The notes under the pieces are model-generated. The model searched no databases, was not told the DNA's origin, and saw only the letters and a list, made by a program, of their open reading frames with translations. From the NCBI GenBank assembly GCA_017962125.1, contig JAGCVZ010000008.1:10677-74676 (forward strand): a stretch of 64,000 bases of DNA, read 5' to 3'. The translations under genes and the position numbers were made by a program. The first letter of the stretch is position 1; each line of letters starts with the position of its first letter. The stretch comes from Alphaproteobacteria bacterium. GTDB taxonomy: Bacteria; Pseudomonadota; Alphaproteobacteria; Rs-D84. Below, in pieces: positions 30,140-44,016 of this stretch.

Positions 30140-30388
30140 ATGACACATGAAGATGTTTGGCGCGCGATAGAGCGATTCGCAATGGAACATGGAATGTCAT
30201 GTTCGGGTCTGGCGCGGTGTAGTGGTCTGGACCCGACGACCTTTAATAAAAGCAAGCGTTGGACCAAGGAAGGTCAGCCTCGTTGGCCATCCACCAATAG
30301 CATATCAAAGATTTTGTCGTCGACTGGGGCGTCAATCCAGGAATTTACCAAGTTTATTGATAATCCTGGGCCTGAACACGCCAATTGA
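30140..30388 (+). CDS. XRE/Cro-CI-type helix-turn-helix protein
   Basis: 82 aa. 'WRAIERFAMEHGMSCSGLARCSGLDPTTFNKSKR...RWPSTNSISKIL' is the HTH pattern seen at the N-termini of alphaproteobacterial phage-repressor-like proteins. Confidence 0.7.
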   Translation: MTHEDVWRAIERFAMEHGMSCSGLARCSGLDPTTFNKSKRWTKEGQPRWPSTNSISKILSSTGASIQEFTKFIDNPGPEHAN

Positions 30389-30418
30389 TGGCAAAATATG
30401 GGCCTCTCGACAGCCAAA

Positions 30419-30462
30419 AACCGGTATGCGTTCACGCGTACCGGTTCCCCTTTTTCTTGTTT
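30419..30462 (+). terminator. Intrinsic terminator
   Basis: 'accggtatgcg ttca cgcgtaccggt' followed by 'tcccctttttcttgtttt'. Confidence 0.7.
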
Positions 30463-30624
30463 TGTTTATTTTTAATCAAAAATAACTTTTGTTCCAGTTC
30501 TTTAATTTTTTCAAAATTTACAATGAATCTGTCACCGCAAAATTGGTATGTAATAACAGAATAGGGCGGACTGGTACAGGATTTTTTGTTGGACAGGCGT
30601 TCCTCGCCGTATTACTATTAGGAT

Positions 30625-31044
30625 ATGTTCTCTGGACTAAGTTTTTTTTCATCTGACCCAGTTTGGCAACAAATAGTTGGCGAACTGGGGGCGACAGTTA
30701 CGACAGATTCGGTTTTGTGTGACGTGAACCTTGACAAGTTGGATTTAAAATTACCAATTTCGCCAACAGACTTAAAATCTGCAATCATCGCAGAGATAGA
30801 TGGCGCAAAAATTATCGATTCTATTTTTGGTCGTCGTGTTTCGCTCTCGCCGACACAAACAAGAATAATAACACTGCTTTATAAAAGCGGTGGTATGTCG
30901 GCGGATGGGTTGAAATCTGCACTTGGATATGCGCCAGATGCGACAACGCACAGCGTGGAAACCTTAATATATGGACTGAGAAAATTATACGGATACGATT
31001 TTATAAAAAACATAAATGGGATTTTCAAACTTGGGCGGATATAA
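30625..31044 (+). CDS. Winged-helix (OmpR/PhoB C-terminal-like) DNA-binding protein without receiver domain
   Basis: 139 aa. 'VSLSPTQTRIITLLYKSGGMSADGLKSAL...THSVETLIYGLRKLYG..FIKNINGIFKLG' follows the Trans_reg_C pattern. Confidence 0.5.
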   Translation: MFSGLSFFSSDPVWQQIVGELGATVTTDSVLCDVNLDKLDLKLPISPTDLKSAIIAEIDGAKIIDSIFGRRVSLSPTQTRIITLLYKSGGMSADGLKSALGYAPDATTHSVETLIYGLRKLYGYDFIKNINGIFKLGRI

Positions 31045-31696
31045 GGTTTTTTCTTTTGATAAAATTCCCAGTACGCAAGATTATGCGTATGATATGATTG
31101 CAAATGGAACAGCGCGTGATCACAGTGTCATTGTAGCAATGGCTCAGTCTGCTGGTCGTGGACGCTATCGGCGCAAATGGGTGTCGCATCATGGAAATTT
31201 GTACGCAAGTTTTATTTTTGATTCGCCTGAACGTGACCCAAGGCTTTCATATGCTGTTGCAGTTGCTGTTGCAGAAACAATTTTGAACTTTAAAGTATCA
31301 CCATCTATAAAATGGCCAAACGATATTTTGATATCGGGAAAGAAAATTTCTGGGATTTTGATAGAATACGCAGGGCGATTCGTTATTGTTGGAATTGGTA
31401 TAAATGTTCACACAAACCCAACTGTTGCAGAATATGAAACTACCCGTATGGATGTGCACACGCGCGCAGATGTTTCAGAAATTTTTTTCATGCTTGCAAA
31501 AAATTTAGATAAATGGATAAACGCAAATTTCGATTCGGTGCGTGCACGATGGATGGATTTCGCAATGGGTATAAATAAGTTGGTTAAATATCGTGGGGAA
31601 AGCGTAGAATTAATCGGAATAAATGACAATGGTGCACTGGTTGTACGTCGTGGTTCGGAATATCTTTTAATTCATGGTGATGAAATAATGATGTAA
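31016..31696 (+). CDS. birA: Biotin--[acetyl-CoA-carboxylase] ligase (group I, no HTH)
   Basis: 'GRGRYRRKWVSHHGNLYASF' (the GRGRxGRxW motif) and 'KWPNDILISGKKISGILIE'. 226 aa. Overlaps the upstream ORF by 29 nt. Confidence 0.85.
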   Translation: MGFSNLGGYKVFSFDKIPSTQDYAYDMIANGTARDHSVIVAMAQSAGRGRYRRKWVSHHGNLYASFIFDSPERDPRLSYAVAVAVAETILNFKVSPSIKWPNDILISGKKISGILIEYAGRFVIVGIGINVHTNPTVAEYETTRMDVHTRADVSEIFFMLAKNLDKWINANFDSVRARWMDFAMGINKLVKYRGESVELIGINDNGALVVRRGSEYLLIHGDEIMM

Positions 31697-31731
31697 AAAA
31701 AGCCGTAAATCCGGTTTTTTTTATAAATGTC

Positions 31732-31760
31732 TTGACTTTATCAGCGTTTTATGATATACT
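31732..31760 (+). promoter_or_regulatory. Strong sigma70-like promoter with extended -10 at the head of the phage-like module
   Basis: TTGACT (31732-37), 17 nt, then TGaTATACT (31752-60). Confidence 0.55.
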
Positions 31761-31790
31761 ATCGACTGTCAAAAGGGAATGTTGTATAGT

Positions 31791-31841
31791 TCGTACGTCA
31801 AGGTACGGATTTTTTTATGCCACGCATCTGCGTGGCTTTTT
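31791..31841 (+). terminator. Tandem intrinsic terminators between the promoter and the first phage-like gene
   Basis: Hairpin 1: 'tcgtac gtcaag gtacgg' plus 'attttttt'. Hairpin 2: 'gccacgc atct gcgtggc' plus 'ttttt'. The first ORF starts at 31857. Confidence 0.55.
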
Positions 31842-31856
31842 ACATAGGGAAAAATC

Positions 31857-32267
31857 ATGCAAATGGAAATAATCGAAGCTAATGATGAAATAATGACATT
31901 GTCTTATGCGGTGGCCAGAGTTGTTTATGCAGAAACACTTGCAAAATCTTTACAAGTTGTCGAAGCGTTGACATCAATGATTTTTAATGCTGCTTTGCAC
32001 GATATAAAAAATGTTCGACTTGTTATATCGGATTCGCAAATGTTCGAATCGTTACGAACCGAATCTACACGACATGAATTTTTATCAGTAGATGCATCAC
32101 GACGTGATTTTCAAATGTGCTTGCGTATAGCAAAAACTATGTTGCATGGAAATTTACCAGATACATGTCATCATGCAGTAAAATTTCATCGTACAGAATT
32201 TTTACCATCTTGGGCGGTTGCTCGCGGATACATATATGACTTGGATGGAATTTTATTTTATACGTAA
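31857..32267 (+). CDS. Cell-wall hydrolase (SleB / Hydrolase_2-like)
   Basis: 136 aa. 'VARVVYAET...', 'QMFESL' and C-terminal 'FHRTEFLPSWA....DLDGILFY' follow the SleB-domain pattern (A.V.YAE...QF...P.W...H.FY). Confidence 0.5.
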   Translation: MQMEIIEANDEIMTLSYAVARVVYAETLAKSLQVVEALTSMIFNAALHDIKNVRLVISDSQMFESLRTESTRHEFLSVDASRRDFQMCLRIAKTMLHGNLPDTCHHAVKFHRTEFLPSWAVARGYIYDLDGILFYT

Positions 32268-32285
32268 TTTTTATATGGGGGCAAC

Positions 32286-32474
32286 ATGAACAAATTTTTT
32301 CGCGGCGGTTTTTTTGCGAATCGCCGAACACAAATAATGACTGCTTGCGGAGTGGTTTCTGCGTTATGTGCATACCTTGTTGGTGATTCGGATTTGTTCG
32401 CTACGATTCAGGCTTTGATTGCGGTTGTTGGTGTTTACATGTTGCATAAAACAAATCAACAAAAAGGAAAATAA
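32286..32474 (+). CDS. Small two-TM membrane protein (holin-like by position)
   Basis: 62 aa with two hydrophobic segments ('IMTACGVVSALCAYLVG', 'IQALIAVVGVYML') and a basic tail, directly after the hydrolase. Confidence 0.4.
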   Translation: MNKFFRGGFFANRRTQIMTACGVVSALCAYLVGDSDLFATIQALIAVVGVYMLHKTNQQKGK

Positions 32475-32475
32475 A

Positions 32476-33132
32476 ATGGAAAAAGTACCAGAAAAATTTT
32501 TAAATGAAGATGGAACTTTGAATAGCGACGCATTGATAAAATCATATAATGAACTTGAAAAAAAAATTGGCGGGATGATAACTGTGCCTGATGAAAATTC
32601 AGACGAAACAGTGAAAAATCGGTTTTGGCGTGCGATTGGTGTCCCAGAAACTCCAGATGAATATCCGCATAGCGAAATGTTCGATAATGAAAACGTGCGT
32701 CAAGAATTCCATAAAATTGGATTAACAAATTCACAAGTAGAAAAAATTTACGATATTGCAAAAGAATTTTTATCACCGATTCTTGCAGAAATTTTTTCAC
32801 AGCAAAAGGAATCAAATGCGATATCGGAATTAAAAAATTTTTTTGGCAGCGAAGAAAAAATGCAAGATGCTTTTGTTGCAATTAAATCTTTTGGTGAAAA
32901 GTTTTTGCCGACAGATGCATTCAATGAATTGTGCTCTACACCCCAAGGAATACAAGGCATTTACAAGATGATGCAATCAATGGAACCACATGTTGAAACA
33001 GATGGTAATGCACCAGAAAAATTATCTGATTCTGATTTGCGAAATATGATGCGTGATCCGAAATATTGGCGTGATCATGATGTAGAATATATTCGCAAAA
33101 TTGAAAACGGTTTTAAAAAATTATATTCATAA
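32476..33132 (+). CDS. Phage scaffolding (capsid assembly) protein-like
   Basis: ATG at 32476. Acidic 218-aa protein. The N-terminal 'PEKFLNEDGTLNSDALIKSYNELEKKIG' is the pattern I associate with podovirus scaffolds. Its position upstream of the capsid gene matches T7 gp9. Confidence 0.45.
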   Translation: MEKVPEKFLNEDGTLNSDALIKSYNELEKKIGGMITVPDENSDETVKNRFWRAIGVPETPDEYPHSEMFDNENVRQEFHKIGLTNSQVEKIYDIAKEFLSPILAEIFSQQKESNAISELKNFFGSEEKMQDAFVAIKSFGEKFLPTDAFNELCSTPQGIQGIYKMMQSMEPHVETDGNAPEKLSDSDLRNMMRDPKYWRDHDVEYIRKIENGFKKLYS

Positions 33133-33249
33133 TGTAATTTTTTTTATAAAAATTTACTTTTCTTCTTTACTAATTTTTTTCTTTAATATAAAATGTAATC
33201 AAGAACAAAAGAAATTTGTTCTATCCAAAAAAATAGAAAGGAGAGATGA

Positions 33250-33546
33250 ATGGCATTCACATTCTTGAAAACTGCGGCAAAGAAACCTGCTGCGAAAAAA
33301 ACGGTTGCTGCTAAGAAGCCTGCGGCAAAGAAACCTGCGGCAAAGAAACCTGTCGCTAAAAAACCTGCTGTAAAGAAAGTTGCAGCAAAGAAACCGGTTG
33401 CAAAGAAAGTCGTTGCAAAGAAACCTGCTGCGAAAAAAACAGTTGCCAAAAAAGTGGCTGTAAAAAAAGTAGCTGCTAAAAAGCCGGTTGCAAAAAAAGT
33501 TGTCGCGAAGAAACCTTGTGCAAAAAAATGTGCAAAGAAAAAATAA
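33250..33546 (+). CDS. Lys/Ala-rich histone-H1-like repeat protein
   Basis: 98 aa, almost entirely (A/V)AKKP(A/V)AKK repeats, ending 'KKPCAKKCAKKK'. AGGAGAG RBS. Followed by two terminators. Confidence 0.7.
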   Translation: MAFTFLKTAAKKPAAKKTVAAKKPAAKKPAAKKPVAKKPAVKKVAAKKPVAKKVVAKKPAAKKTVAKKVAVKKVAAKKPVAKKVVAKKPCAKKCAKKK

Positions 33547-33563
33547 AAATTCGCTAAACTTGT

Positions 33564-33637
33564 AAAATGCCCGTATATCGGGCATTTTTTATAAAATTTT
33601 TCAGTCAGATGTGATCGGTCTGACTGAATTTTTTTAT
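33564..33637 (+). terminator. Tandem intrinsic terminators
   Basis: 'atgcccg tatat cgggcat' plus T6, and 'tcagtcaga ...tctgactga' plus 'attttttt'. Confidence 0.7.
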
Positions 33638-33762
33638 TTGGATAATCCAGTAATCTGGACCCGTTTAATTTTGTTCTTTGGCGCATACGTGCATAACCAA
33701 AAAACAATTTTTGGTTTGGTGAAAAATTTCACCGTGTATAACGTTTAACAAAAGGAATAATA

Positions 33763-34581
33763 ATGTCTACTTCAATAGATCAAGTGTTTGTAAAACAATT
33801 TGAAGCTGATGTTCATTTGGCATATCAACAAATGGGCACAAAATTGCGCTCAACCGTGCGCAGCAAATCCGGTGTTGTTGGTAAATCCACAACTTTTCAA
33901 AAAATAGGTAAAGGTACAGCGAGTACGAAATCTCGTCATGGTATTGTGCCAGTTATGAATTTAAATCACGAACCTGTAGAATGCAATTTACAAGATTATT
34001 ATGCGGGCGATTGGGTCGATGCGTTGGATGAATTAAAAGTTAACATTGATGAACGTCGTGTTGTAGCCTCGGCTGGGGCTTATGCATTGGGGCGTAAAAC
34101 CGATGAACTTATCATCGCGGCCATGGCTACGGCTACGCAGAATTCTGGGGATTATTCTACTGGTCTTACCAAAACTGTTATTTTGGGCGCTTTGGAAAAA
34201 TTGAATGAAAATGATGTTCCAGATGATGGTCGTAGATTCGCAGTTGTTGGTGTGAAACAATGGAACGAATTGCTTGGCATCGATGAGTTTTCGTCTGCGG
34301 AATATGTTGGTTCTGATTTGCCATTTATCAATGGCGGTGAAGTTAAAAGATGGCTTGGCATTACCTGGTTGATGCATAATGGCTTGCCGTTGTCTTCATC
34401 GACACATCGTGACTGTTTTATATATCATGCATCCAGCATTGGTCATGCGTGCGGGCAAGAAGTCAAGACGGATATATCGTGGCATGGAGAACGTGCGGCG
34501 CACTTTATTAGCAACAGCATGTCCCAGGGCGCGGTTCTGATTGATAACAGTGGAATTGTCCGTCTTAAATGTGGCGAATAA
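33763..34581 (+). CDS. Phage major capsid protein (HK97-fold type)
   Basis: 272 aa. The N-terminal 'FVKQFEADVHLAYQQMGTKLRSTVR...G....TFQKIGKG' pattern is typical of podoviral capsid proteins. It sits after the scaffold and before the gp11/12-like genes. Confidence 0.65.
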   Translation: MSTSIDQVFVKQFEADVHLAYQQMGTKLRSTVRSKSGVVGKSTTFQKIGKGTASTKSRHGIVPVMNLNHEPVECNLQDYYAGDWVDALDELKVNIDERRVVASAGAYALGRKTDELIIAAMATATQNSGDYSTGLTKTVILGALEKLNENDVPDDGRRFAVVGVKQWNELLGIDEFSSAEYVGSDLPFINGGEVKRWLGITWLMHNGLPLSSSTHRDCFIYHASSIGHACGQEVKTDISWHGERAAHFISNSMSQGAVLIDNSGIVRLKCGE

Positions 34582-34605
34582 AATCAATAATCAAAGGGGA
34601 AAACA

Positions 34606-34839
34606 ATGGCTTTTCAAAATAAAAATTTGTCGGTAATTGCATATGCAAACGGGTTTACATTGTGGCATTATGTTGAAAGCGCAACATTAGCAACAATTAC
34701 AGCCAGCGGTTATTTCAATGCGGTTGGAACATTAATGAACACAGGGGATATAGTTATTATCAATGCTTCTGATAAAACATCTATAAAGAAAATTGCGGTC
34801 AGTGATGCAGGCGTAGTAACAACCGGAGCTTTGGATTAA
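34606..34839 (+). CDS. Small phage-module protein, unknown function
   Basis: 77-aa ORF with RBS 'aaagggga', between the capsid gene and a terminator. Confidence 0.45.
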   Translation: MAFQNKNLSVIAYANGFTLWHYVESATLATITASGYFNAVGTLMNTGDIVIINASDKTSIKKIAVSDAGVVTTGALD

Positions 34840-34862
34840 TATTGATTATTGTTCACAAAATA

Positions 34863-34892
34863 GGGCCGGCTTTTCGGCCCTTTTAATTTTTT
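34863..34892 (+). terminator. Intrinsic terminator after the capsid block
   Basis: 'gggccg gctttt cggccc' plus 'ttttaatttttt'. Its position is analogous to the T7 T-phi terminator after gene 10. Confidence 0.65.
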
Positions 34893-34908
34893 ACCATAGG
34901 GGAAAGTA

Positions 34909-35427
34909 ATGCTGACGAAAGTAGATTTATGTTCAATGGCACTGTTGAAATTGGGGGAAAACCCGATTCAATCTTTGTCTGAAGACACAGCGGCTGCAAA
35001 ACTTGGTCGCACTCTTGTTGATTTTGTTATAGATACATTATTGGCAATGCATCCGTGGCGTTTTGCATGTCGCACATATAACCTGATTCGTGATGAAAAC
35101 GGTGATTTTATAATACCTTCGGATATACTAAGGATTATAAAAACCAATGGCAAAGTTATGGAAAATAAAATTATATCAAATGCAGATAACTTAACTATAA
35201 CAGCCGTGGTTCGTGTAACCCCTAATGATTTTCCAAGTTATTTCGCATCACTTGTAGCAACCAAACTTGCAGTAGAATTTTGTATGCCACTTATTTCGGA
35301 TCAAACGGTTTTTAGAACTTTGGTTGCACTTTATGAAAACGAATTACAAACAGCAAAATTTATAGATAGCACAACATCAGTGAATACAAATATAGAAGAT
35401 TTTTCATTAATAAATAGTCGGTTTTAA
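34909..35427 (+). CDS. Tail tubular protein A (T7 gp11-like)
   Basis: 172 aa. 'LCSMALLKLGENPIQSLSED' parallels T7 gp11 'VNDILASIGEPPVSTLEGD', followed by a 'HPWRF' Trp-Phe motif. Confidence 0.55.
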   Translation: MLTKVDLCSMALLKLGENPIQSLSEDTAAAKLGRTLVDFVIDTLLAMHPWRFACRTYNLIRDENGDFIIPSDILRIIKTNGKVMENKIISNADNLTITAVVRVTPNDFPSYFASLVATKLAVEFCMPLISDQTVFRTLVALYENELQTAKFIDSTTSVNTNIEDFSLINSRF

Positions 35428-35449
35428 TTATACCAAAGGGGAATTAAAT

Positions 35450-37153
35450 ATGGGAAATTTTATAAAAACTCAGGAATCTTTTGCCGACGGAGAGGTTTCA
35501 ATAAATTTTTTCGAAAATGACAACATTCATGGTGTTGCACACATGGAAAATTTTGACGTTTGTGCAGGAGGTGGACTGGTTCGTAGACCTGGATTAAAAA
35601 AATCTGCACAACTTATCATGGATGCGAGACTTGTATCATTTTCTGCATCGGAAACAGAAGAATATGTTTTAGCCATAATGAATGGTCGTATAAGAATTTT
35701 TGCAAATGATAGTTTCGTTCAAGATGTTACGACACCATGGGCGAGTTCTGACATACCAAAGTTACAATATGCACAACGCTTTGGTACGATGATATTTGTA
35801 CACCAAGATTATCCTCCGAAAATTCTTTATCGTGAAAACGGTGTTTTTAAAATTAGGAATTTTAGTTTTTCAAAATCATCTGACGGGAATACGGAAATTC
35901 CGTTTATGCGTTTCGAAGATTCTGAAAATATAACAGTAACCATCACAAATTCTGGAGGAACAATACATTTTACAACAAATGAAGATTTTTGGACACCGGA
36001 AAATGTAGGCGGACATTTACGTGCTATCGGCAAAACTTGGTTAATAAATTCTTATATTAGCGCGACAGATATAACTGCCACATGTAACGGCGCATATACA
36101 TTACCTGATGATCCAGTATCAGATTGGCAAGAGGCGGTATTTAGTCCGCGTCGTGGTTGGCCATCTGCGATAACTTTTCATCAGGATAGATTAGTTTTCG
36201 GTGGTGCTAAATCTTGGCCAGGAGGAATATGGTTGTCACAAGTTGGCAGACATGGAAATTTCGACCTTGGAACAGGACTTGATGACGAAGCCATATTTTT
36301 TACATTATTATCTGACCGCAGACAACAGGTGTGCACCCTTGTTAGTAGCGATAATTTACAGATACTTACATCCGAAGGTGAATGGGCTGTTTCAAATAAA
36401 CCGCTTACGCCGGAATCCGTAAATATAAAGATGCATACGTCGATTGGCAGTATCGCAGATAAATACTTGCCACCACAACAAATGGAAGGCAAAACTGTTT
36501 TCGTTGCAAAAAATAAGCGTGACATAAGGCAACTTAGTCTTGATGATTTAAGTGAAAAATATAATGCAGATAATTTATGTGCTTTGACCAGTCATCTTAT
36601 GAAAAATCCGGTAGATATTTCTTATAACAAAGATGCTCAGAAATTATTTGTTGTTATGTCAGATGGCAATATGGCAGTGTTAAATTATAATGCAGCACTT
36701 GGGATATCGGCATGGGGACGTTATACTACAGATGGAAAATTTACATCTGTGGTCACATGTGATGGCAAAACATTTGTTGTAGTAAAACGTGGAGATAATT
36801 TCTTTCTTGAACGTTTTGATGATTCAGAATTTGTTGATTCAACAAATTACGCATATGCTGCGACTGTATCCGGATTGCCGCTTTTGACATCGGGGCATAA
36901 TGCGAAAAATATCAGAATTAAAAAGATAACTGTTCGTGTGTACAATACAAAAACATTGTTTATCAATGATAGTCGTGTTGTTTTACCAAATGAAATTTAT
37001 GATGATACACAAGCGGGTTTCTGTGGTGATGCATCAATAAATATCTTGGGCACAAGTGTTGATTTAGTTGATACACCATGGAAAATTTCTACCACAGACA
37101 GTCTGCCGTTAAAGATATTGTCAGTGACAATATACGGAAGATATCAAATATAA
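35450..37153 (+). CDS. Tail tubular protein B (T7 gp12-like)
   Basis: 567 aa. 'GGGLVRRPGL' parallels T7 gp12 'EGLQKRPPL'. 'EYVLAIMNGRIRIF' parallels 'YYAVFTGSGIRVF'. It directly follows the gp11-like ORF. Confidence 0.5.
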   Translation: MGNFIKTQESFADGEVSINFFENDNIHGVAHMENFDVCAGGGLVRRPGLKKSAQLIMDARLVSFSASETEEYVLAIMNGRIRIFANDSFVQDVTTPWASSDIPKLQYAQRFGTMIFVHQDYPPKILYRENGVFKIRNFSFSKSSDGNTEIPFMRFEDSENITVTITNSGGTIHFTTNEDFWTPENVGGHLRAIGKTWLINSYISATDITATCNGAYTLPDDPVSDWQEAVFSPRRGWPSAITFHQDRLVFGGAKSWPGGIWLSQVGRHGNFDLGTGLDDEAIFFTLLSDRRQQVCTLVSSDNLQILTSEGEWAVSNKPLTPESVNIKMHTSIGSIADKYLPPQQMEGKTVFVAKNKRDIRQLSLDDLSEKYNADNLCALTSHLMKNPVDISYNKDAQKLFVVMSDGNMAVLNYNAALGISAWGRYTTDGKFTSVVTCDGKTFVVVKRGDNFFLERFDDSEFVDSTNYAYAATVSGLPLLTSGHNAKNIRIKKITVRVYNTKTLFINDSRVVLPNEIYDDTQAGFCGDASINILGTSVDLVDTPWKISTTDSLPLKILSVTIYGRYQI

Positions 37154-37169
37154 AAGAAGAGGTGTAAAA

Positions 37170-37514
37170 ATGGGACAAATTGTTTCAGATGTAACAGATA
37201 TTTTAAATTATAAAGAAAATAAAAACGCAGCAGAAAAAAATAAAAAGAAAATTCTATCTGACATAGAATCAGATGAAATAGAAAAACAAAATATTGTAAA
37301 TAAAGTTTTGGGGGCTCAACGTGCAAAATTTGGTGCATCAGGAATGTCTAATGATGGTGCCACCGAAAAAAATGTGCTTGATAGATTACAAAAAGAAATT
37401 GAAACTTCGTATGAAAATAAAAAGCAAGCAAATATGATGAAAATCGGCGACATAAAAACCAAGAAAAAAAATATATTAACATCAATCTTGGAACACCTTA
37501 ACAAATTGATTTAG
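37170..37514 (+). CDS. Hypothetical Lys-rich protein (small-terminase position)
   Basis: 114-aa ORF immediately upstream of TerL, as gp18 is in T7. No motif support. Confidence 0.35.
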   Translation: MGQIVSDVTDILNYKENKNAAEKNKKKILSDIESDEIEKQNIVNKVLGAQRAKFGASGMSNDGATEKNVLDRLQKEIETSYENKKQANMMKIGDIKTKKKNILTSILEHLNKLI

Positions 37515-37519
37515 AAAAC

Positions 37520-38113
37520 ATGAATCAATATGATGATTTTTTAAATTCTTGGAATCGGGTTTTGGGTTATGAAACGCCGGCGCATCATCATGAAATGACA
37601 AAGTTTCTTGCTAATGTCGTCGATGGCGATTTGCATCGTGGGTTGCTTATGGCGTTTCGACATTCTGGCAAGTCAACGATTGTAGGAATTTTTGCGGCTT
37701 GTATGTTGTATTTACACCCAGAAACGCGAATTTTAATATTGTCTGCAGAAACACATTTGGCTACACGGATGGTTATGCACATACGAAATATTTTAGAAAA
37801 TCATCCGTGGTGTGTTGATATGATACCTAAAAATAAACGAGAATGGGCAGAAAACAAAATAACAATCAATAGACCAATCGGAATACGCGAACCTTCTGTT
37901 GTTTGTCAAGGTGTTTATGGAAATATAACAGGTATGCGCGCAGATTTAATAATATGCGATGATGTCGAAGTGCCAAATACATGTAACACTGCAAGAAAGC
38001 GTGCTAATCTAAGGGAAAGACTACGAGAACTAGATTTTATATTATCACCAAAAGGTACAATGATTTATATAGGTACGCCACACACACTGGATACTATATA
38101 TCGAACGACCTAA
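37520..38113 (+). CDS. Terminase large subunit, N-terminal ATPase half (T7 gp19-like)
   Basis: 'LLMAFRHSGKSTIV' Walker A, 'RADLIICDDVEVPNT' Walker B, and 'MIYIGTPHTLDTIY' (the GTPQ coupling motif). The ORF stops about 6 aa after that motif. Confidence 0.8.
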   Translation: MNQYDDFLNSWNRVLGYETPAHHHEMTKFLANVVDGDLHRGLLMAFRHSGKSTIVGIFAACMLYLHPETRILILSAETHLATRMVMHIRNILENHPWCVDMIPKNKREWAENKITINRPIGIREPSVVCQGVYGNITGMRADLIICDDVEVPNTCNTARKRANLRERLRELDFILSPKGTMIYIGTPHTLDTIYRTT

Positions 38114-38781
38114 GATTCGTCGTGCGATGGTAAAGAACTTGTTAAACTGTGCAGGCGATGTAACAATTCTTTACCGTCATCGCCAAACATTGGTAAATAA
38201 GTTTCATATTCTGGCATATCGACTTGCAGATTTGCACGAATCTTGTCAGTTATAGGTTGTCCAAGAAGTTTGTTTGCTTCGTCCCACAACCGATAAGCCG
38301 TAGAAATACGAACAATGTCACCGAATTTTTTCAAAGCCTCGGGATTATCAGATAACACATTCCGACCTGCTGAAACCCAATCGGTGCCAAATTTTTTTAT
38401 TGCGGAAGTGTTCATAAAATCGTTCAGACCATCAGAAGTTGGGGTAAAATTGTCAATAGCCGTGAGTACATCCTGTAATTCAGATTGTGATACATCCACC
38501 GATTTTTCTGATTCTGCCATCATACCACCATACGGTAACAATTCGTGCGCAATGGAATCCATGGGGGTTTTACCTGTACGCAGATTTTCAATGTGCTGAA
38601 TTAACATTTTACCAGTGGGCAAACTTTGTAATTCGCGAATAATATCGTCATCGGCTTCGTTAACAAATACTGAATTAACCGCCGACCAACCGCCAATAAT
38701 GACGTGGGCTTGGCGATAAAGATTCAAAAGCTTCTGTGCTGTCACACTGGCTTTGGCTTTCATACTGCTTGCTCCCCCCAA
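38110..38781 (-). CDS. Hypothetical protein (first gene of the antisense cassette)
   Basis: 223-aa ORF. Its stop codon (38110-12) overlaps the TerL-N stop codon (38111-13) on the opposite strand. Confidence 0.5.
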   Translation of the reverse strand: MGGASSMKAKASVTAQKLLNLYRQAHVIIGGWSAVNSVFVNEADDDIIRELQSLPTGKMLIQHIENLRTGKTPMDSIAHELLPYGGMMAESEKSVDVSQSELQDVLTAIDNFTPTSDGLNDFMNTSAIKKFGTDWVSAGRNVLSDNPEALKKFGDIVRISTAYRLWDEANKLLGQPITDKIRANLQVDMPEYETYLPMFGDDGKELLHRLHSLTSSLPSHDES

Positions 38782-38796
38782 AAAAACGATATTCGC

Positions 38797-39807
38797 TTAA
38801 TCTACGATAACCATTATGACTTTGTGCATGGTTTTCGCAGAAATCTTTTCTTCTGGTGAAACCATTTGACCATAGATTTTGCCCTTGGAATCCTTGCGAA
38901 CAATGGCAATATTAGCAGATGCAGGCTCTTCTGATTTTAAAGAACCAAAATCAGCATCAATAAACACGCCCAAGTCCCCAGGGGACACGACCGCTTTGCT
39001 GTCCACAAAAACGTAAGATTTTTCAGGTATAAATCCACCAAGACGTTTCGAGTTTGGTATTATCGCATAAATTCCACGACGCCCTTCAAGATTTGCGGGC
39101 GCGGCAATCATATGAGAATCAGAACGTTTAAAGGATATACCTTTTCCTTCTGGCTTACCGAACACTGGTATCAATTTACGACGCGCATTATCATATAGTT
39201 TTGCACCATATAAATGACTAGGCGTTTCGTCAAAATCACTAGACGAATCACCCGGAACCAAAACCGCTTTGACGCGTTCTTTGACCTTGTCCATCTGTTT
39301 GGTCAATTCGCCAGATTTATAAAGTTCTGCGATTTTATCAAAAAGACCTTCCACCGAATGTGCGAAAGATTTTGCAAGCGGTTCAATTTCATTTTTGTAA
39401 ACTTCGCGTTGACCAACCTCAATTTTATGGTAAACAGAAAGCGTCATACCTGCATCTTTGGCGGCTTGGGCAATAGTTTTTCCTGATTGCTGACGTATCT
39501 TGCGTAAACCACTGCCAAAAATCTTAAGACCGCCATCTTCGTTATCATTCATACGGCGTGTGATTTCGTTCTGCCACTTAGATGCGACTTCATCGGTGTC
39601 CTTGATAAAAATGTCAGACAATTTGCAACCCAAGATATTACATATATTCAGTAACTGCTTTTGGTTCAAGCGTCGAACACCTTTTTCAATTTTTGAAACC
39701 GCAGATAAAGATAAATTAGACCTTCTTGCAAGTTCGGTCATTTTCATACCCGCCGCAAGTCTAATGTTACGAATGTTATTTGGAAAAATGATTTCTTCTT
39801 GAGCCAT
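38797..39807 (-). CDS. Double-HTH (XRE-type) regulator with CI/LexA S24-like C-terminal domain
   Basis: 336 aa. HTH1 is 'IRNIRLAAGMKMTELARRSNLSLSAVSKIEKG'. HTH2 is 'LRKIRQQSGKTIAQAAKDAGMTLSVYHKIEVG'. The C-terminal beta-rich domain 'GFIPEKSYVFVDSKAVVSPGDLGVF' resembles the S24 fold, but no clear Ser/Lys dyad is present. Confidence 0.65.
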   Translation of the reverse strand: MAQEEIIFPNNIRNIRLAAGMKMTELARRSNLSLSAVSKIEKGVRRLNQKQLLNICNILGCKLSDIFIKDTDEVASKWQNEITRRMNDNEDGGLKIFGSGLRKIRQQSGKTIAQAAKDAGMTLSVYHKIEVGQREVYKNEIEPLAKSFAHSVEGLFDKIAELYKSGELTKQMDKVKERVKAVLVPGDSSSDFDETPSHLYGAKLYDNARRKLIPVFGKPEGKGISFKRSDSHMIAAPANLEGRRGIYAIIPNSKRLGGFIPEKSYVFVDSKAVVSPGDLGVFIDADFGSLKSEEPASANIAIVRKDSKGKIYGQMVSPEEKISAKTMHKVIMVIVD

Positions 39808-39885
39808 ATATAATCTCCTTGGGTAAATCTTGACAAAATGATAAGGTATTTTTTGAAACTTGGCAAGTAAAAAAAATTACAAATT

Positions 39886-41439
39886 TTATTCGAATTCATC
39901 CGGAATATCATCAATGTCAATCGGCGTTGGTGCGTCACCAGATTCCGTGATTTGTGATGGCTCTGGTGCAAATTCCACCGTACGTGCCGCCATCTCATTA
40001 AGATTATCGAACAGACTATATTCTGCCAAAAAGGCAACGGTGACAGTATCTGTTCGACCATGACGATTTTTTCCGATAATGATATCCGCCTTGCCTTTGG
40101 CTTTTTCAAGCCGGTTTTGCCATGAATCGATAGATTTTTCATTTGGTGTGTTTGAAAGTCTACGAGATGGGTCGCGGTTTTGCAAATAGTATTCTTCACG
40201 ATAAGTGAACATAACGATGTCGGCATCTTGTTCAATAGAACCAGATTCACGCAAATCGGCAAGTTGTGGCCGTTTGTCGTCACGACTTTCCACACTGCGT
40301 GACAATTGAGATAGCGCAATCACCGGTACATTAAATTCCTTGGCAAGCATTTTAAGACCGCGCGTTATTTCCGATAGTTCTTGAACGCGGTTGTCATTGC
40401 GCTTTCCACCGGGCAATGTTAATAATTGCAGATAATCGATGACGATAAGCGCGATGCCATTATATTTCCGCGCAAGCCGTCGTACGCGTGTGCGAATCAT
40501 TGGCAAAGACATGCCAGGAGTGTCATCAATGAATAATGGAATCCGCCCAATAGCATCAGCAAACTGAGCCATCTTAAGAAAATCTTCATCGTTCAAAGAT
40601 GAACCCTCACGCATCGCACTTGACGGAATTCTTGTCTGAGATGATAAAACACGAGCCGCTAATTCGGAAGCCCCCATTTCAAGGCTGAAAAAAGCGACAG
40701 CTCCTTTATATTGCTCATTAGCGCGTCCAGAAAAAATAGCATTTGCGGCATTAAAAGCAATGTTCATTGCAAGTGTAGTCTTACCCATACCCGGACGCCC
40801 AGCAATAATAATCAAATTTGATTTATGCATACCACTTATTACGTGGTCTAAGTCGACAAGCCCCGTAGTTAGTCCGGAAAGCTTGCCGTCGGCCTTGTAT
40901 GCAATCTCTGCTTCGGCTAACGCGTCTTTTAACGCATTTGCGATTGGCACGACATCGCGTGTTGTGTCCCCAGTCATAGACAGATTAAACAGTTTTTGTT
41001 CGGCTGTTTCAATCTGGGCAGATACAGGGTTGTCAAGGTCTTCAATAAACGCGGCATCGGTTACAGATTGACCAAAATCAATAAGTTCACGTCGAACGGC
41101 ATTTTCATGAACAATGCGACCATATTGTTCCACGTTTACTACGGTAGCGCCAGCACTGGCTAACTGGGTCAGATATTCAACACCACCAACTGATTCCAAG
41201 GTGCCTTGTTGATCAAGATAATTTTTCGCCGTTATTATATCAAAAGGTATCCCAGCGGCAAACTGGCGCAGGGCAAGTTTATAAATTTCTTGGTGCGCAG
41301 GATGCGAAAAATCTTCTGGACGTAAAAATTCGGAAATTTTTTCCAAAGCGCGATTTTTCATCAAAACCGCGGCCAAGACCGCTTGTTCGGCCTCTAAATT
41401 AGTTGGCAAAGTTTTGGGAGTAAAGTCCATGTCAAACAT
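39886..41439 (-). CDS. dnaB: Replicative DNA helicase DnaB
   Basis: 517 aa. 'LPTNLEAEQAVLAAVLM', 'IIIAGRPGMGKTTLAMNIA' Walker A, 'LIVIDYLQLL' Walker B, 'ITRGLKMLAKEFNVPVIALSQLSR' and 'GSIEQDADIVMF'. Acidic C-terminal tail '...IDIDDIPDEFE'. Confidence 0.95.
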   Translation of the reverse strand: MFDMDFTPKTLPTNLEAEQAVLAAVLMKNRALEKISEFLRPEDFSHPAHQEIYKLALRQFAAGIPFDIITAKNYLDQQGTLESVGGVEYLTQLASAGATVVNVEQYGRIVHENAVRRELIDFGQSVTDAAFIEDLDNPVSAQIETAEQKLFNLSMTGDTTRDVVPIANALKDALAEAEIAYKADGKLSGLTTGLVDLDHVISGMHKSNLIIIAGRPGMGKTTLAMNIAFNAANAIFSGRANEQYKGAVAFFSLEMGASELAARVLSSQTRIPSSAMREGSSLNDEDFLKMAQFADAIGRIPLFIDDTPGMSLPMIRTRVRRLARKYNGIALIVIDYLQLLTLPGGKRNDNRVQELSEITRGLKMLAKEFNVPVIALSQLSRSVESRDDKRPQLADLRESGSIEQDADIVMFTYREEYYLQNRDPSRRLSNTPNEKSIDSWQNRLEKAKGKADIIIGKNRHGRTDTVTVAFLAEYSLFDNLNEMAARTVEFAPEPSQITESGDAPTPIDIDDIPDEFE

Positions 41440-42277
41440 AGTATACGAAAAAAATGTTTTTTCAACGCCTTTTTTATCTGGTTATGCAGAATTAAAAATT
41501 CCAGTGGTTGATAATAGCGGAAATCCAGCTTGGCCATCGGTTTTTCCAGTAGAAAAAATAGCAGAAATTCGTAAAACAGTCGGAGATAGGCATTTTTCGG
41601 CACAAATGATGTTGGAATATGTTGCACCAGATAAAATACGTCTTGACCCAGGAGGAATAAAATTTTACGAGACAGATTTTGACAAACATAGTTGCAAAAT
41701 TGGTGAAACACTTGTAACTGGGGCGACAATATATTGGGATCCTTCTGGGGGACGGAAAAATTCCGATGAAAGTGTTTGTGTGATTATTTATCGCGATGAC
41801 CAAACACACCGTTTTTTCATCCATGATATGATTTACCTTACTGTACCGGATGGTGTCGAATACCCGTTGACATATCAATGTGACAAGGTTTTGGGGTTTG
41901 TTCGCATGCATCGCCAAAGAGTGCTTTCTGTTGAAACAAACGGAATCGGTGCGGCGTTACCAGAAATAATGCGTGAAACAATTATGCGCGCAGGTTACGA
42001 GATACAAATTCGCCCGATTACCAACAGTCGTCGCAAAGAAGATAGAATTTTGGATGCCATAGAACCATTGCTTACAACTGGTCGACTTTACGCCCACCAA
42101 CGCATAACCCAGACTCCTTTTATATCGGAAATGTTAGCATGGACACCAATTGGTGGTGGTGAACATGATGACGGATTGGATGCGGTCGCAGGGGCAATTT
42201 TATCTTTGCCTACACCGATGCGCCCCATTGGAAAAAATGTTCGCGGCTATATTGCGAACACAGATTTTAAACTTTAA
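41429..42277 (+). CDS. Terminase large subunit, C-terminal nuclease half (T7 gp19-like)
   Basis: 'HFSAQMMLE' (T7 'GFTLQFML'), 'IYWDPSGGRKNSDES' (T7 'VIDPSGRGKDETG') and 'GEHDDGLDAVAGA' (T7 'AHDDRLDALALG'). ATG at 41429 behind GGGAG. The 5' end overlaps the dnaB start on the other strand. Confidence 0.75.
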   Translation: MSNIVYEKNVFSTPFLSGYAELKIPVVDNSGNPAWPSVFPVEKIAEIRKTVGDRHFSAQMMLEYVAPDKIRLDPGGIKFYETDFDKHSCKIGETLVTGATIYWDPSGGRKNSDESVCVIIYRDDQTHRFFIHDMIYLTVPDGVEYPLTYQCDKVLGFVRMHRQRVLSVETNGIGAALPEIMRETIMRAGYEIQIRPITNSRRKEDRILDAIEPLLTTGRLYAHQRITQTPFISEMLAWTPIGGGEHDDGLDAVAGAILSLPTPMRPIGKNVRGYIANTDFKL

Positions 42278-42292
42278 CCAAAAGGAAACAAA

Positions 42293-43519
42293 ATGAAATA
42301 TGATTTACAAAAAATGTACTCACGTGCAATGGCATTGCGAGAACCATGGATTAAACGCTGGTCAGATGCGCGCCGTTATACCATGCCGACGTCTGACGAA
42401 GAAATTGCAACATTATTTGATGGAACAGCTGCAGATGCGGCAGATAATTTGGCAGCATGTATGTATTCATTGTTAACACCACCGGAATCATTGTGGTTAA
42501 ACCTTGTCCCAGAATCTGAAGAATCTCCGGATGCGGTTACGGCGACCATGGCATTGCGTTCTAACTTGAACGAATCAAATTTTTATACAACGATTCATCA
42601 GTGTTATCTTGACTTGGTAACCATGGGAACGGCATGTCTGTTTATGGCTGAATCACCAATTGGCGCGGCAAGTGCATTTAATTTTACAGCAATCCCAATT
42701 ACAGATATTGCAATTTTACCGAACGCCATATTCCATACTGCTATGATTACCGCCCAAGATGTTGCTATTCGTTATCCTGAATGGACACCACCGCGTGCAA
42801 TCCTTGATGCTATGAAGCAAAATCCAGAATATCAACTGCGTCTGGTCCAGGCATTGGTAGATACTGAATTTACCGCATGGATAGATGTAGGGGGAAATAT
42901 TGAAAATAATATCGTATCAAAAGGAACTTTTGAAACTAACCCATATATTGTATTCCGTTGGGCACTAGCAAGTGGTGAATTATATGGTCGTGGTCCTGTC
43001 TTGCGCGCACTTCCTGACATCAAAACGGCGAACAAGGTCGTTGAACTTGTTTTAAAGAACGCCACTATTGCGGTAAGTGGTATATGGCAAGCCGATGATG
43101 ATGGTGTCATAAACCTTAGTAATATAAATCTTATGCCGGGTGCAATAATTCCAAAAGCCGTAGGCAGCACCGGTTTAACACCGCTTTCAACCGGTGCAAA
43201 CTTTGACGTGTCGCAAATAATTCTGAAAGATTTGCGCGAACGCATTCGCCATACAATGCTTGCAGATAGAATAGGCACACTTTCAGATAAGGAAATGACA
43301 GCAACAGAAATACTTGCGCGGAATGCGGATATGTTGCGCATCTTGGGCGCTACATACGGGCGATTGTTACATGAATTTATCAGACCATTATGTGATCGTG
43401 GATTACAGATACTTGCACGTCGTGGTGTAATAGACAAAATATCATTACACAGTGATGCAGAATTAAAATATATTGCGCCAATTGCGCAAATGGTTGCGGA
43501 AAACAGCACATTGATATAG
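42293..43519 (+). CDS. Phage portal (head-to-tail connector, T7 gp8-like)
   Basis: 408 aa. 'YSRAMALREPWIKRWSDARRYTMP' parallels gp8 'YERLKNDRAPYETRAQNCAQYTIP'. 'KEMTATEILARNADMLRILGATYGRLLHEFIRPL' parallels 'ERVTAEEIRYVASELEDTLGGVYSILSQELQLPL'. Confidence 0.65.
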   Translation: MKYDLQKMYSRAMALREPWIKRWSDARRYTMPTSDEEIATLFDGTAADAADNLAACMYSLLTPPESLWLNLVPESEESPDAVTATMALRSNLNESNFYTTIHQCYLDLVTMGTACLFMAESPIGAASAFNFTAIPITDIAILPNAIFHTAMITAQDVAIRYPEWTPPRAILDAMKQNPEYQLRLVQALVDTEFTAWIDVGGNIENNIVSKGTFETNPYIVFRWALASGELYGRGPVLRALPDIKTANKVVELVLKNATIAVSGIWQADDDGVINLSNINLMPGAIIPKAVGSTGLTPLSTGANFDVSQIILKDLRERIRHTMLADRIGTLSDKEMTATEILARNADMLRILGATYGRLLHEFIRPLCDRGLQILARRGVIDKISLHSDAELKYIAPIAQMVAENSTLI

Positions 43520-43529
43520 GGGGAAAACA

Positions 43530-43736
43530 ATGGAAAAAATTGCACATGAATATGCGCGCACTTTTTCAAACGCATCGGGAAAAGCGGTTATTTCACATTT
43601 ACGCAAAATAACAATAGAAAGATTTTTAGGACCGCATGCAACAGATAGTGAACTTCGTTCTCTTGAAGGTGCGCGTGCGCTGGTTCATCAAATTGAAACT
43701 TTAATTGAACGGGGGCAAGCAAATGCCAAAGTCTAA
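43530..43736 (+). CDS. Small phage protein (Bbp19-like)
   Basis: 68 aa. The 'ARTFSNASGKAVISHL...ELRSLEGARALVHQIETLI' pattern is recalled from the Bbp19-like family of BPP-1-type podoviruses. Low certainty. Confidence 0.35.
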   Translation: MEKIAHEYARTFSNASGKAVISHLRKITIERFLGPHATDSELRSLEGARALVHQIETLIERGQANAKV

Positions 43737-43980
43737 TGGACTATCAAATATTATCGATGTATTACGCAGTGGTTGGTTCCTAATAGTGTTTATCGCCGGA
43801 ATGATATATTGGGTCGCCCGACAAGATAACGCTTTGGTTGAACTTGATCGATTGACCGTTCGTATGACGACACTTGAAAACCGAACAACTGTTTTAGAAA
43901 CGGGAATAGGGCAACTGCAACTAAAAATAGATGGCATCAAAGAAGATTTGACATTAATAAAAACAGCTGTCATAAGATAA
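43723..43980 (+). CDS. Membrane-anchored coiled-coil protein
   Basis: ATG at 43723. TM segment 'GWFLIVFIAGMIYWV' followed by heptad-like 'LDRLTVRMTTLENRTTVLETGIGQLQLKIDGIKEDL'. Confidence 0.45.
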   Translation: MPKSNGLSNIIDVLRSGWFLIVFIAGMIYWVARQDNALVELDRLTVRMTTLENRTTVLETGIGQLQLKIDGIKEDLTLIKTAVIR

Positions 43981-44016
43981 AAAAACCGCGGGATTTTTCC
44001 CGCGGTTGATTTTTTA
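43981..44016. terminator. Bidirectional intrinsic terminator closing the phage-like module
   Basis: 'aaaaa ccgcggg attttt cccgcgg ttgatttttt'. Confidence 0.75.

Follow-up and report, generated by a model that had tools for sequence, protein, structure and literature searches.

We analysed a 64,000-nucleotide (nt) stretch of the chromosome of an alphaproteobacterium (contig JAGCVZ010000008.1; hereafter the window, with positions counted from its first letter) that carries head, tail, packaging and lysis genes of podovirus type. The host belongs to Candidatus Enterousia (order Rs-D84), an alphaproteobacterium of gut and rumen with a reduced genome, which in this group measures about 0.75-1.0 Mb (PMC12306168). 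We put at about 60% the probability that the segment 30140-44007 is what remains of a compact temperate podovirus-like element, domesticated and passed on vertically, with a function like that of gene transfer agents (GTAs). It is probably a new GTA-like system of podovirus type. The phage block consists of T7- and HTVC010P-type parts, and what is new here is such a domesticated module in genome-reduced Alphaproteobacteria, a conserved two-piece large terminase (TerL) that encloses dnaB and a regulator gene and, as a hint, a widespread family of compact relatives.

The module is fixed in Candidatus Enterousia and under purifying selection

Relatives were collected by a scan of one genome per GTDB species, which returned 260 of them, and the 80 best were fetched for comparison. 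These are metagenome-assembled genomes from rumen, omasum, colon and faeces that are named Candidatus Enterousia or uncultured Alphaproteobacteria. Families were assigned by Pfam, PHROG, NCBIfam and Rfam searches. Wherever the contig reaches, gene order, strand pattern, chromosomal site and the split of the terminase gene are identical in all 80 species-level genomes. Genes for a scaffolding protein, a lysine/alanine (Lys/Ala)-rich protein, the major capsid protein, a protein of 77 amino acids (aa), gp11- and gp12-like tail proteins and a 114-aa protein are followed by the N-terminal half of the terminase (TerL-N), by three reversed genes (for a 223-aa protein, a regulator and DnaB), and then by the C-terminal half (TerL-C), the portal, a Bbp19-like protein and a transmembrane (TM) protein. 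The left side, with genes for an 82-aa and a 139-aa protein, birA and a hydrolase, is the same in 8 species. The right side, where the contig reaches it, mostly has the same yraN and three unknown genes, a block that is inverted in one genome (L082).

The open reading frames (ORFs) of the module are full length in 66-80 loci each, and the short ones lie mostly at contig ends. Ratios of non-synonymous to synonymous substitutions (dN/dS; pairwise NG86, pairs with 0.05<dS<1.2) range from 0.05 to 0.27 across the module, comparable to those of neighbouring host genes. They amount to 0.055 for TerL-N, 0.06 for the portal, 0.08 for the capsid protein, 0.10 for the gp12-like, 77-aa and TM proteins, 0.11 for TerL-C and the gp11-like protein, 0.22 for the scaffold, 0.26 for the Bbp19-like protein and 0.27 for the 114-aa protein, next to 0.047 for dnaB, 0.069 for asnS, 0.14 for yraN and 0.10-0.20 for the three flanking unknowns. 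Moreover, protein distances of the module follow those of four flanking non-phage genes (Spearman 0.90). Synonymous divergence among the species is near saturation (median dS about 1 in the filtered pairs), and the element must therefore be old.

The module is thus fixed, co-diverging with its host and under purifying selection, as GTAs (viriforms) are in this respect. That some 10 kb of phage genes are kept in a genome of 0.75-1.0 Mb implies a function. An earlier sequence-only reading of this DNA had proposed a candidate domesticated particle system and had named synteny and dN/dS across relatives as a check. The outcome clearly favours domestication, which is strongly supported, and conservation on this scale makes it very probable that the module is selected and functional.

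A terminase gene split around dnaB

The two halves of the TerL gene lie 3.3 kb apart, and between them stand three minus-strand genes for the 223-aa protein, a 336-aa regulator and DnaB. TerL-N (37520..38113, plus strand) comprises the ATPase core with Walker A, Walker B and motif III and matches phrog_38 positions 273-459 (E 9.3e-43). TerL-C (41429..42277, plus strand) comprises the rest of the ATPase domain and a T7-type RNase H-like nuclease (PF22530, E 1.3e-9) and matches phrog_38 positions 482-711. In a library of representatives at 50% identity most of the proteins closest to TerL-N are TerLs about 450-515 aa long, the aligned part being residues ~6-197, and TerL-C aligns with intact TerLs from residue ~198 to the end. 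When joined, the halves align end to end with four intact TerLs (481-505 aa), no part being lost, and the break falls into a variable linker directly after ATPase motif III (GTPHT). The closest cultured relatives are T7-like Autographiviridae, and TerL-N is 35-36% identical to T7-like vibriophages. TerL is intact in every out-of-clade relative whose fetched contig holds it. A terminase in two pieces had been noticed in the sequence-only reading and is borne out by these matches, but its separation by dnaB, the strangest trait of the locus, had escaped that reading. Its picture of a continuous plus-strand block with every ORF intact and tightly packed is contradicted by the three minus-strand genes that part the halves.

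Walker A, Walker B, motif III and the Asp motifs of the nuclease are invariant across 71-78 species (71 for TerL-N, 78 for TerL-C). In 54 of 71 loci the stop codons of TerL-N and the convergent 223-aa gene overlap over 4 nt, and TerL-C has its own conserved start (GGGAG-N9-ATG). No direct or inverted repeats were found at the junctions, the insert holds no recombinase and no intron or other Rfam family, and split-intein halves lack room. The simplest reading is that the halves are made separately and would work together, their activity being assumed from conservation. The gene would then have been split by insertion of the block u223-xre-dnaB into the linker after motif III, and the separately translated halves would have to reassemble non-covalently.

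At the right junction (positions 41400-41470), nucleotide conservation exceeds 90% across 71 species. A CATG palindrome is found there in which the ATG of TerL-C overlaps a possible start codon of dnaB, and a conserved minus-strand promoter-like sequence (TTGAAA-16-TACTAT) lies within the first codons of TerL-C. Such a promoter would yield a leaderless or near-leaderless dnaB mRNA.

The enclosed dnaB (39886..41439, minus strand) encodes a replicative DNA helicase of chromosomal type (NF006606, 589.7 versus a cut-off of 540; TIGR00665). A phage-type DnaB was rejected, as the phage_DnaB model TIGR03600 failed (401.7 versus 498.65). The 336-aa regulator (38797..39807, minus strand) has two XRE-type helix-turn-helix (HTH) domains (HTH_3, E 1.7e-19, two stretches), and its C-terminal domain appears by eye to have an S24-like fold without the conserved serine. 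In an alignment of 16 species its mean column identity is 84% and the columns of the N-terminal HTH are mostly invariant; matches in the PDB are confined to the HTH.

The third enclosed gene (38110..38781, minus strand) encodes a clade-restricted all-alpha protein of 223 aa without a Pfam, PHROG or NCBIfam match. It has 1310 homologues, and among the 120 listed all are unannotated or hypothetical. An AlphaFold2 (AF2) model is all-alpha (predicted local distance difference test, pLDDT, 81.5). No PDB sequence matches the protein, and the best Foldseek hit against the PDB has an E of 0.85 and a TM-score of about 0.2. Roles as a Q-like protein, a loader or a small terminase (TerS) found no support, the model being without a PDB fold match.

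In one divergent species rpsF-rpsR-rplI lie just 5' of the genes for the 82-aa and 139-aa proteins and birA (L165:6539-7741). In bacteria rplI often adjoins dnaB. Taken together, this upstream neighbourhood and the usual adjacency hint that the element landed beside dnaB, which was later rearranged into TerL.

Head, tail and lysis genes

All genes of the window in this section lie on the plus strand. The T7 gp8-like portal or head-tail connector (42293..43519; PF12236, E 1.8e-80) has 4792 database homologues, the best 120 clusters of which measure 406-410 aa and are 79-95% identical. It is followed by the small Bbp19-like virion-module protein (43530..43736; PF25181, E 4.7e-9), which sits 3' of the portal in relatives too. 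The T7 gp9-like scaffolding protein (32476..33132; PF05396, E 2.6e-8) has 218 aa, as in the gene call in L001. The major capsid protein (33763..34581; PF19821, E 3.3e-75; phrog_3437) has the HK97 fold and belongs to the HTVC010P-type family PF19821 and not to the T7 gp10 type; it is 47% identical to that of Pelagibacter phage EXVC031P Hodr. The conserved 77-aa virion-module protein (34606..34839; phrog_18004, E 2.9e-12) is encoded 3' of the capsid gene in relatives as well. Next come the T7 gp11-like tail tubular protein A or adaptor (34909..35427; phrog_394, E 1.8e-32; weak PF17212) and the T7 gp12-like tail tubular protein B or nozzle (35450..37153; phrog_376, E 5.2e-86). The latter is shortened to 567 aa and is 31% identical to its 919-aa counterpart in Hodr.

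The 114-aa coiled-coil protein (37170..37514) is probably gp14-like. In 9 relatives the hidden Markov model (HMM) of its orthologues matches the reading frame that follows gp12 (E 9e-12 to 1e-5), one such ORF has a weak T7_gp14 Pfam match (E 0.0014), and by this homology the protein would probably be the internal or ejection protein of the gp14 position. A role as small terminase (gp18), the position given to it in the sequence-only reading, was rejected on the same homology. Otherwise the gene list of that reading, from the hydrolase to the TM coiled-coil protein, proved mostly right in the family searches, and the podovirus or T7-like origin of the parts agrees with Pfam, PHROG and the neighbours of TerL.

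Between the scaffold and capsid genes lies a gene for a 98-aa Lys/Ala-rich protein (33250..33546) similar to histone H1 and Hc2 (PF07382, E 7.5e-16; NCBIfam matches under the cut-off). It was found in 66 Enterousia loci with a dN/dS of 0.18, and an HMM search of distant relatives found no counterpart. The gene has its own terminator. Its product could be a captured host nucleoid protein or a DNA-condensing cargo.

Genes for lysis are present in the block. The first encodes a SleB/Hydrolase_2-type cell-wall hydrolase, a putative endolysin (31857..32267; phrog_938 endolysin, E 1.7e-5), with 157 homologues, many of which carry PF07486; in relatives it adjoins TerL and a holin. A holin-like protein of 62 aa follows (32286..32474), whose translation, read by eye, has a charged C-terminus and two hydrophobic stretches that are predicted to be TM; an ORF of 62-73 aa occupies the same place in all species checked. 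The last gene (43723..43980) encodes a TM and coiled-coil protein of 85-91 aa that is weakly XhlA-like (PF10779, E 0.0079) and a possible lysis accessory; in relatives an XhlA/hemolysin-like protein is encoded 3' of the endolysin. One relative has a GTA_holin_3TM holin (PF11351, E 3.4e-9) between endolysin and portal (L141:4851-5381).

Other phage functions were sought in the module and in the whole window. Single-subunit RNA polymerase, phage DNA replication genes, the gp15/gp16 core and a full-length fibre are absent from both, and family searches found no integrase, replication or excision genes in 30140-44007 or its flanks. No homologues of the internal proteins or fibres of Hodr, or of the stub fibre described below, were found in the window outside the module. 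The sequence-only reading had listed integrase, polymerases, ejection proteins and a fibre as missing, which is right for the window except that a gp14-like protein is probably represented by the 114-aa ORF.

Of 70 sister species, 31 encode between their 114-aa gene and TerL-N a stub fibre of 181 aa, made of the N-terminal domain of T7 gp17 and a short tail (phrog_1640, E 2.3e-10; PF03906 weak; e.g. L044:4670-5215), with 58-83% identity among carriers. It is absent in the lineage of the window and from the rest of the window, and the fibre seems to have been shortened and afterwards lost.

A promoter followed by terminators, and the left boundary

Upstream of the first late gene is a near-consensus sigma-70 promoter (TTGACT-17-TATACT with a TG extension; 31732..31760, plus strand). 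The leader behind it contains two intrinsic terminators in tandem, hairpins at 31788-31811 and 31819-31836 (plus strand) with a T run each, which directly precede the hydrolase gene. In all 8 species checked the spacer between birA and hydrolase contains an extended -10 promoter, the sequence CATCAAaAG, the hairpin or hairpins and a ribosome-binding site in this order. The hairpins, one or two, are GC-rich and followed by T7-8, and their stem sequences differ between species. The leader has no significant Rfam match.

Further terminators lie inside the operon. An intrinsic terminator (hairpin and T run; 33600..33628, plus strand) precedes the capsid gene, and a terminator-like hairpin 3' of the Lys/Ala-rich gene was found in 67 of 67 loci. 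Another, given without strand (34862..34881), follows the capsid/77-aa pair and is conserved in 68 of 69 loci. A bidirectional intrinsic terminator (43984..44007) closes the block, with a terminator-like site in 58 of 78 loci. The other spacers checked between genes of the same orientation are free of terminators, apart from 19 of 70 loci with one ahead of TerL-N, behind the 114-aa gene, and one locus with one between TerL-C and portal. A promoter followed by tandem terminators suggests the anatomy of a late operon controlled by antitermination. In BaGTA, a promoter-terminator circuit is overcome by the processive antiterminator BrrG (bioRxiv 10.1101/2024.11.20.624540), and the same preprint cites antitermination by GafZ for CcGTA.

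To the left, an 82-aa Cro/CI-type HTH protein is encoded at 30140..30388 (plus strand), which by its homology to S24 repressors is a DNA-binding domain without peptidase. It is 47-50% identical (E 2e-25, 7e-24) to the N-terminus of the S24 repressors beside related elements, its HMM picks up this repressor, at E 1e-22 to 1e-34, in 45 related loci or more, and identity among three Enterousia species is 85-89%. Judged by this homology, it is the DNA-binding domain of the ancestral S24 repressor of the element, and the element therefore starts at about 30140 and includes birA. The sequence-only reading had let the block run from birA to the bidirectional terminator. Both landmarks are there and birA does adjoin the late genes, but the element reaches further left, to the HTH gene.

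The gene birA (31016..31696, plus strand; PF03099, E 6.7e-19), for the housekeeping biotin protein ligase, lies between the regulator genes and the late operon in the same position in all species checked. It is preceded in 8 of 8 species checked by the gene for a conserved 139-aa neighbour (30625..31044, plus strand), whose role in the element is uncertain. This protein has weak MarR and Trans_reg_C matches, its profile gives only weak winged-helix matches in the PDB, and a single-sequence AF2 model was unusable (pLDDT 47).

Relatives and origin of the element

The nearest cultured relatives of the capsid, portal, Bbp19-like, scaffold, 77-aa, gp11- and gp12-like proteins are HTVC010P-type pelagiphages (e.g. 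Hodr). These phages have the seven homologous genes in the same internal order as Enterousia; unlike Enterousia, they have very large internal proteins after gp12, fibres, early genes and a single-chain TerL. Relatives in IMG/VR and metagenomes, a sizeable and varied set with a portal 40-46% and a capsid 55-65% identical and a GC content of 35-75%, lie in many cases within contigs of 90-450 kb. Their plan starts with a repressor of S24/CI type, which is oriented the other way, and a pair or trio of small genes, after which come portal, Bbp19, scaffold, capsid, 77-aa protein, gp11 and gp12. It ends with a homologue of the 114-aa protein, often a T7 gp17-type fibre, a small phrog_31793 ORF that is a candidate TerS, an intact TerL, the SleB-type hydrolase and a holin/XhlA-like gene. 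Related phages with full-length fibres exist.

Compact relatives (L174, L217, L142) share the head-tail genes and their internal order with Enterousia (capsid 47-65% identical, phages included) and differ from it in that their S24 repressor has the catalytic residues, a candidate for TerS is present, TerL is intact and the order runs portal ... TerL-lysis. The element in L174 (6909-17354, ~10.4 kb) has dnaE/lnt on one side and murJ on the other, as judged by eye from translations, and contains neither an integrase nor genes for replication. The repressor of L217 lies directly beside genes for a porin, PurB and RNase E/G. Because compact relatives without an early region are widespread, the compact gene set predates Enterousia. 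The idea of the sequence-only reading that the early region had been removed from a circularised map is correct only in part. Compared with these relatives, the Enterousia order is a rearrangement of the plan portal ... TerL-lysis. The moves specific to Enterousia are those of portal and Bbp19 to a place after TerL and of the hydrolase to the front, together with loss or truncation of the fibre, loss of the TerS candidate, insertion of the histone-like gene and the split of TerL.

Compact elements of ~10-13 kb were seen in L174, L217, L142, L175, L178, L185 and about 35 further loci, in long chromosomal contigs with a GC content of 41-75%. These could in turn be GTA-like systems, or else minimal prophages of a new kind. 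Moreover, the module is listed in IMG/VR as dozens of 'viral genomes' of about 10-12 kb (uncultivated virus genomes L085-L138), and many entries start exactly at the capsid gene and end just past portal or Bbp19. Such entries look as if host contigs had been trimmed automatically into proviruses, and not like the genomes of physical viruses. An unannotated relative is found in GenBank as 'Bacteriophage sp.' from human faeces (L084, MT838907.1, 5084 bp); its capsid is 65% identical and its order is the ancestral portal-Bbp19-scaffold-capsid-gp11-gp12. Finally, a tRNA(U5)-methyltransferase-like gene is found near the element both in the window (27837-28760) and in L142 (10239-11258), the two being 36% identical, which is either a coincidence or the trace of an ancient common insertion site.

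Surroundings and host

Beyond the element the window carries ordinary core genes such as recG, priA, asnS/aspS, bamA and those for an M48 peptidase and an ABC-F protein, and an Rfam scan of the window found tRNAs only. The three unknowns after yraN (268, 221 and 237 aa; 44654-46832, minus strand) are conserved in 34-36 species. The 237-aa protein is barely over the Pfam cut-off for VirB8 (24.3 versus 23.2 bits) and is a possible secretion or uptake component beside the particle genes. Metagenome contigs in ENA carry a portal identical to that of the window. The Enterousia paper (PMC12306168) mentions neither phage nor capsid nor gene transfer, titles and abstracts of the papers found on Enterousia and Rs-D84 give no account of such an element, and Enterousia or Rs-D84 taxa are unmentioned in a paper on murine virus-like particles. 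The host had been described from the sequence as of intracellular style; Candidatus Enterousia of gut and rumen is not known as intracellular.

A possible mode of action and its alternatives

We propose that the element was fixed in the Enterousia chromosome before the genus diversified and has since been kept by purifying selection. Scaffold, capsid, 77-aa protein, portal, Bbp19-like protein, gp11-like adaptor, gp12-like nozzle and gp14-like protein would assemble a small head with a short tail, which the T7-type large terminase would fill as two polypeptides, and hydrolase, 62-aa holin-like protein and XhlA-like protein would release it by lysis. Rare cells would switch the element on, package DNA without sequence specificity and lyse in the manner of GTAs. 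That DNA-containing particles are made in this way seems to us somewhat better than an even chance; the absence of TerS is suggestive only for random packaging.

The strong, constitutive-looking promoter at 31732 directly precedes two terminators, and more of them lie downstream. Because terminators stand after the promoter and inside the operon, late expression should need an antitermination factor. The switch would be set by the 82-aa repressor-domain protein, by the 336-aa double-HTH protein or by both. TerL-C, portal and Bbp19 would be reached either from a promoter inside dnaB or by a transcript that reads through antisense to dnaB, and the latter would tie the making of particles to a shut-off of helicase and regulator. 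In its fullest form the proposal is a podovirus-type GTA of independent origin with a two-polypeptide TerL and antisense coupling to dnaB, which would be the sole gene for a replicative helicase in the cell. Its antiterminated late transcript would run antisense through dnaB and the regulator, the cell would stop replicating, package its chromosome and lyse, and DNA would enter recipients via the gp14-like outer-membrane protein and host uptake machinery instead of gp15/16 and fibres. Such a system would be made by Candidatus Enterousia and possibly, with the compact relatives, much more widely in Proteobacteria. This whole chain is tentative, and we think it rather unlikely that all of its links hold.

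Several points weigh against a GTA-like function. Neither the module nor the 64-kb window contains a TerS, a gp15/16-type ejection protein or a receptor-binding fibre, so that without gp15/16 or fibre the route of DNA into a recipient lacks obvious machinery. No antiterminator was found either: the 223-aa protein has no fold match, the model of the 139-aa protein is unusable and the leader has no Rfam match. Plus-strand terminator-like sites antisense to the dnaB block, counted in search of a depletion, number 640, versus 555 in shuffled sequences, by a detector that is too permissive. A literature search found no precedent for a TerL made as two polypeptides. The element might also fit inside its own head, and all function is deduced from sequence.

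An interrupted terminase and missing fibre, ejection, replication and integration genes are what a decaying or defective prophage might leave. Its genes would persist from a recent gain or because a deletion would remove dnaB and birA, and embedded essential genes could indeed shield the region from large deletions. Embedding is no shield against point mutations, however, and yet the ORFs are intact in 66-80 species with host-like dN/dS (0.05-0.27) and invariant catalytic motifs, and near-saturated dS speaks for an old element, not a recent one. Together with identical synteny and co-divergence with the flanks this rules out a decaying remnant, which the sequence-only reading had kept as its conservative alternative, and we give it next to no weight. 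Another alternative is that the terminase is made whole before it acts, either through programmed excision of the 3.3-kb insert in producer cells, comparable to the skin element in sigK, or through splicing at the level of RNA or protein, so that a normal single chain results. This would agree with an insert placed precisely in the linker without loss of TerL residues, and terminally differentiating producer cells could afford to lose dnaB. It is very unlikely in view of junctions without repeats, an insert without recombinase, intron or other Rfam family, the want of room for split-intein halves, the conserved TerL-N stop in its overlap with the convergent stop (54 of 71 loci) and the conserved Shine-Dalgarno sequence and ATG of TerL-C.

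A domesticated module could also act against or with an infecting podovirus, as an infection-induced, fixed analogue of a satellite or as an abortive-infection device, by hijacking fibres, ejection proteins and TerS of a helper or by poisoning its assembly. The missing functions (fibre, gp15/16, TerS) are exactly those a helper could supply, related phages do have full-length fibres, repressor-type regulators flank the module, and lysis genes are carried, as abortive systems may. However, an element without integrase, replication and excision genes does not spread as a satellite, and strict vertical inheritance and slow evolution of capsid and portal (portal 79-95% in the 120 best clusters) are unlike those of arms-race genes, which makes this role improbable. 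Just as improbable, in our judgement, are particles or shells without gene transfer, be they empty or protein-filled heads or a programmed lysis that feeds DNA and nutrients to kin, with the TerL halves kept for another role such as a nuclease or ATPase on the chromosome. The missing delivery apparatus, the histone-like Lys/Ala-rich gene inserted in the head operon and the split within the ATPase domain would fit such shells, yet portal, adaptor, nozzle and both TerL halves with all their motifs are conserved like the capsid. This conservation is hard to explain unless DNA is pumped through the portal and held by the tail.

Implications and comparison with known systems

The module has stayed intact through the radiation of a whole genus, in genomes from which almost everything dispensable is gone. 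If it is a GTA, it would represent a new viriform lineage and point to selection for gene exchange in a symbiont-like group with reduced genomes. A TerL that is split in its ATPase domain, with both halves under constraint, amounts to a natural protein-fragment complementation experiment on a viral DNA motor, and the position of dnaB and the regulator between the halves suggests a testable link between replication and particle production. That compact relatives lie between host core genes in widely differing bacteria suggests a widespread element type that may be under-recognised.

Like RcGTA and CcGTA (Rhodogtaviriformidae), the Enterousia element is a chromosomally fixed head-tail-packaging cluster that is vertically inherited under purifying selection, has no integrase or replication genes, and has its late cluster behind terminators. 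Release by lysis is a further likeness, which in Enterousia extends to lysis genes only. RcGTA and CcGTA are of HK97-type siphovirus origin, with a long tail, TerS, a single-chain TerL and known regulators, whereas the Enterousia element has T7/HTVC010P-type podovirus families throughout, a TerL around dnaB and no TerS, and is known from genes alone. Homology with RcGTA was ruled out, as Pfam and PHROG give podovirus families for all parts and no long-tail genes.

BaGTA (Bartogtaviriformidae) is likewise found in a host-associated alphaproteobacterium, as a compact, genus-wide structural and lysis cluster of roughly 14 kb. Both systems have a promoter followed by an attenuating leader or terminators, to which BaGTA adds the antiterminator BrrG, and both show a physical link to replication functions, by run-off replication (ROR) in BaGTA and dnaB in Enterousia. 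The sizes and order of the BaGTA genes (portal 1863 nt, TerL 1344 nt, 'phage related protein' 1119 nt) differ from those in Enterousia. The TerL of BaGTA groups with Sulfitobacter phages (paper of the International Committee on Taxonomy of Viruses), that of Enterousia has T7-like Autographiviridae as its nearest cultured relatives. Going by these gene sizes, orders and TerL neighbours, the Enterousia element seems not to belong to BaGTA.

In its control region the element resembles the PR'-tR' late region of lambdoid phages, where intrinsic terminators likewise stand at most about 100 nt past a strong, constitutive-looking promoter and before the lysis and structural genes. It differs from lambdoid Q control in that no Q-like protein, Q-binding or pause element was identified and in that it has two tandem and additional internal terminators. 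A capsid-forming satellite, similar to the capsid-forming phage-inducible chromosomal islands, does not agree with the lack of integrase and replication genes and with a chromosomal site that stays the same across all species.

Few independent domestications of phages to GTAs are known, and the well-studied ones are long-tailed. The claim of the sequence-only reading that the described GTAs all go back to long-tailed phages is outdated, since FpGTA of Faecalibacterium prausnitzii is claimed to be the first podovirus-like GTA-like element (Nat Commun 2026, PMC12946183), and its argument for novelty needs revision for this reason. FpGTA and the Enterousia element are both GTA-like systems of gut bacteria and thought to be podovirus-like. 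FpGTA, which belongs to a Firmicute, is spread over two loci and includes a baseplate, a tail fibre and a receptor-binding protein, and its packaging of host DNA has experimental support (PMC12946183). The Enterousia element, as far as descriptions set the two apart, is that of a proteobacterium, occupies a single locus, has no fibre and is known from its genes, in which the structural set of a T7-like podovirus (PF05396, PF12236, PF22530, phrog_394, phrog_376, phrog_38) is present.

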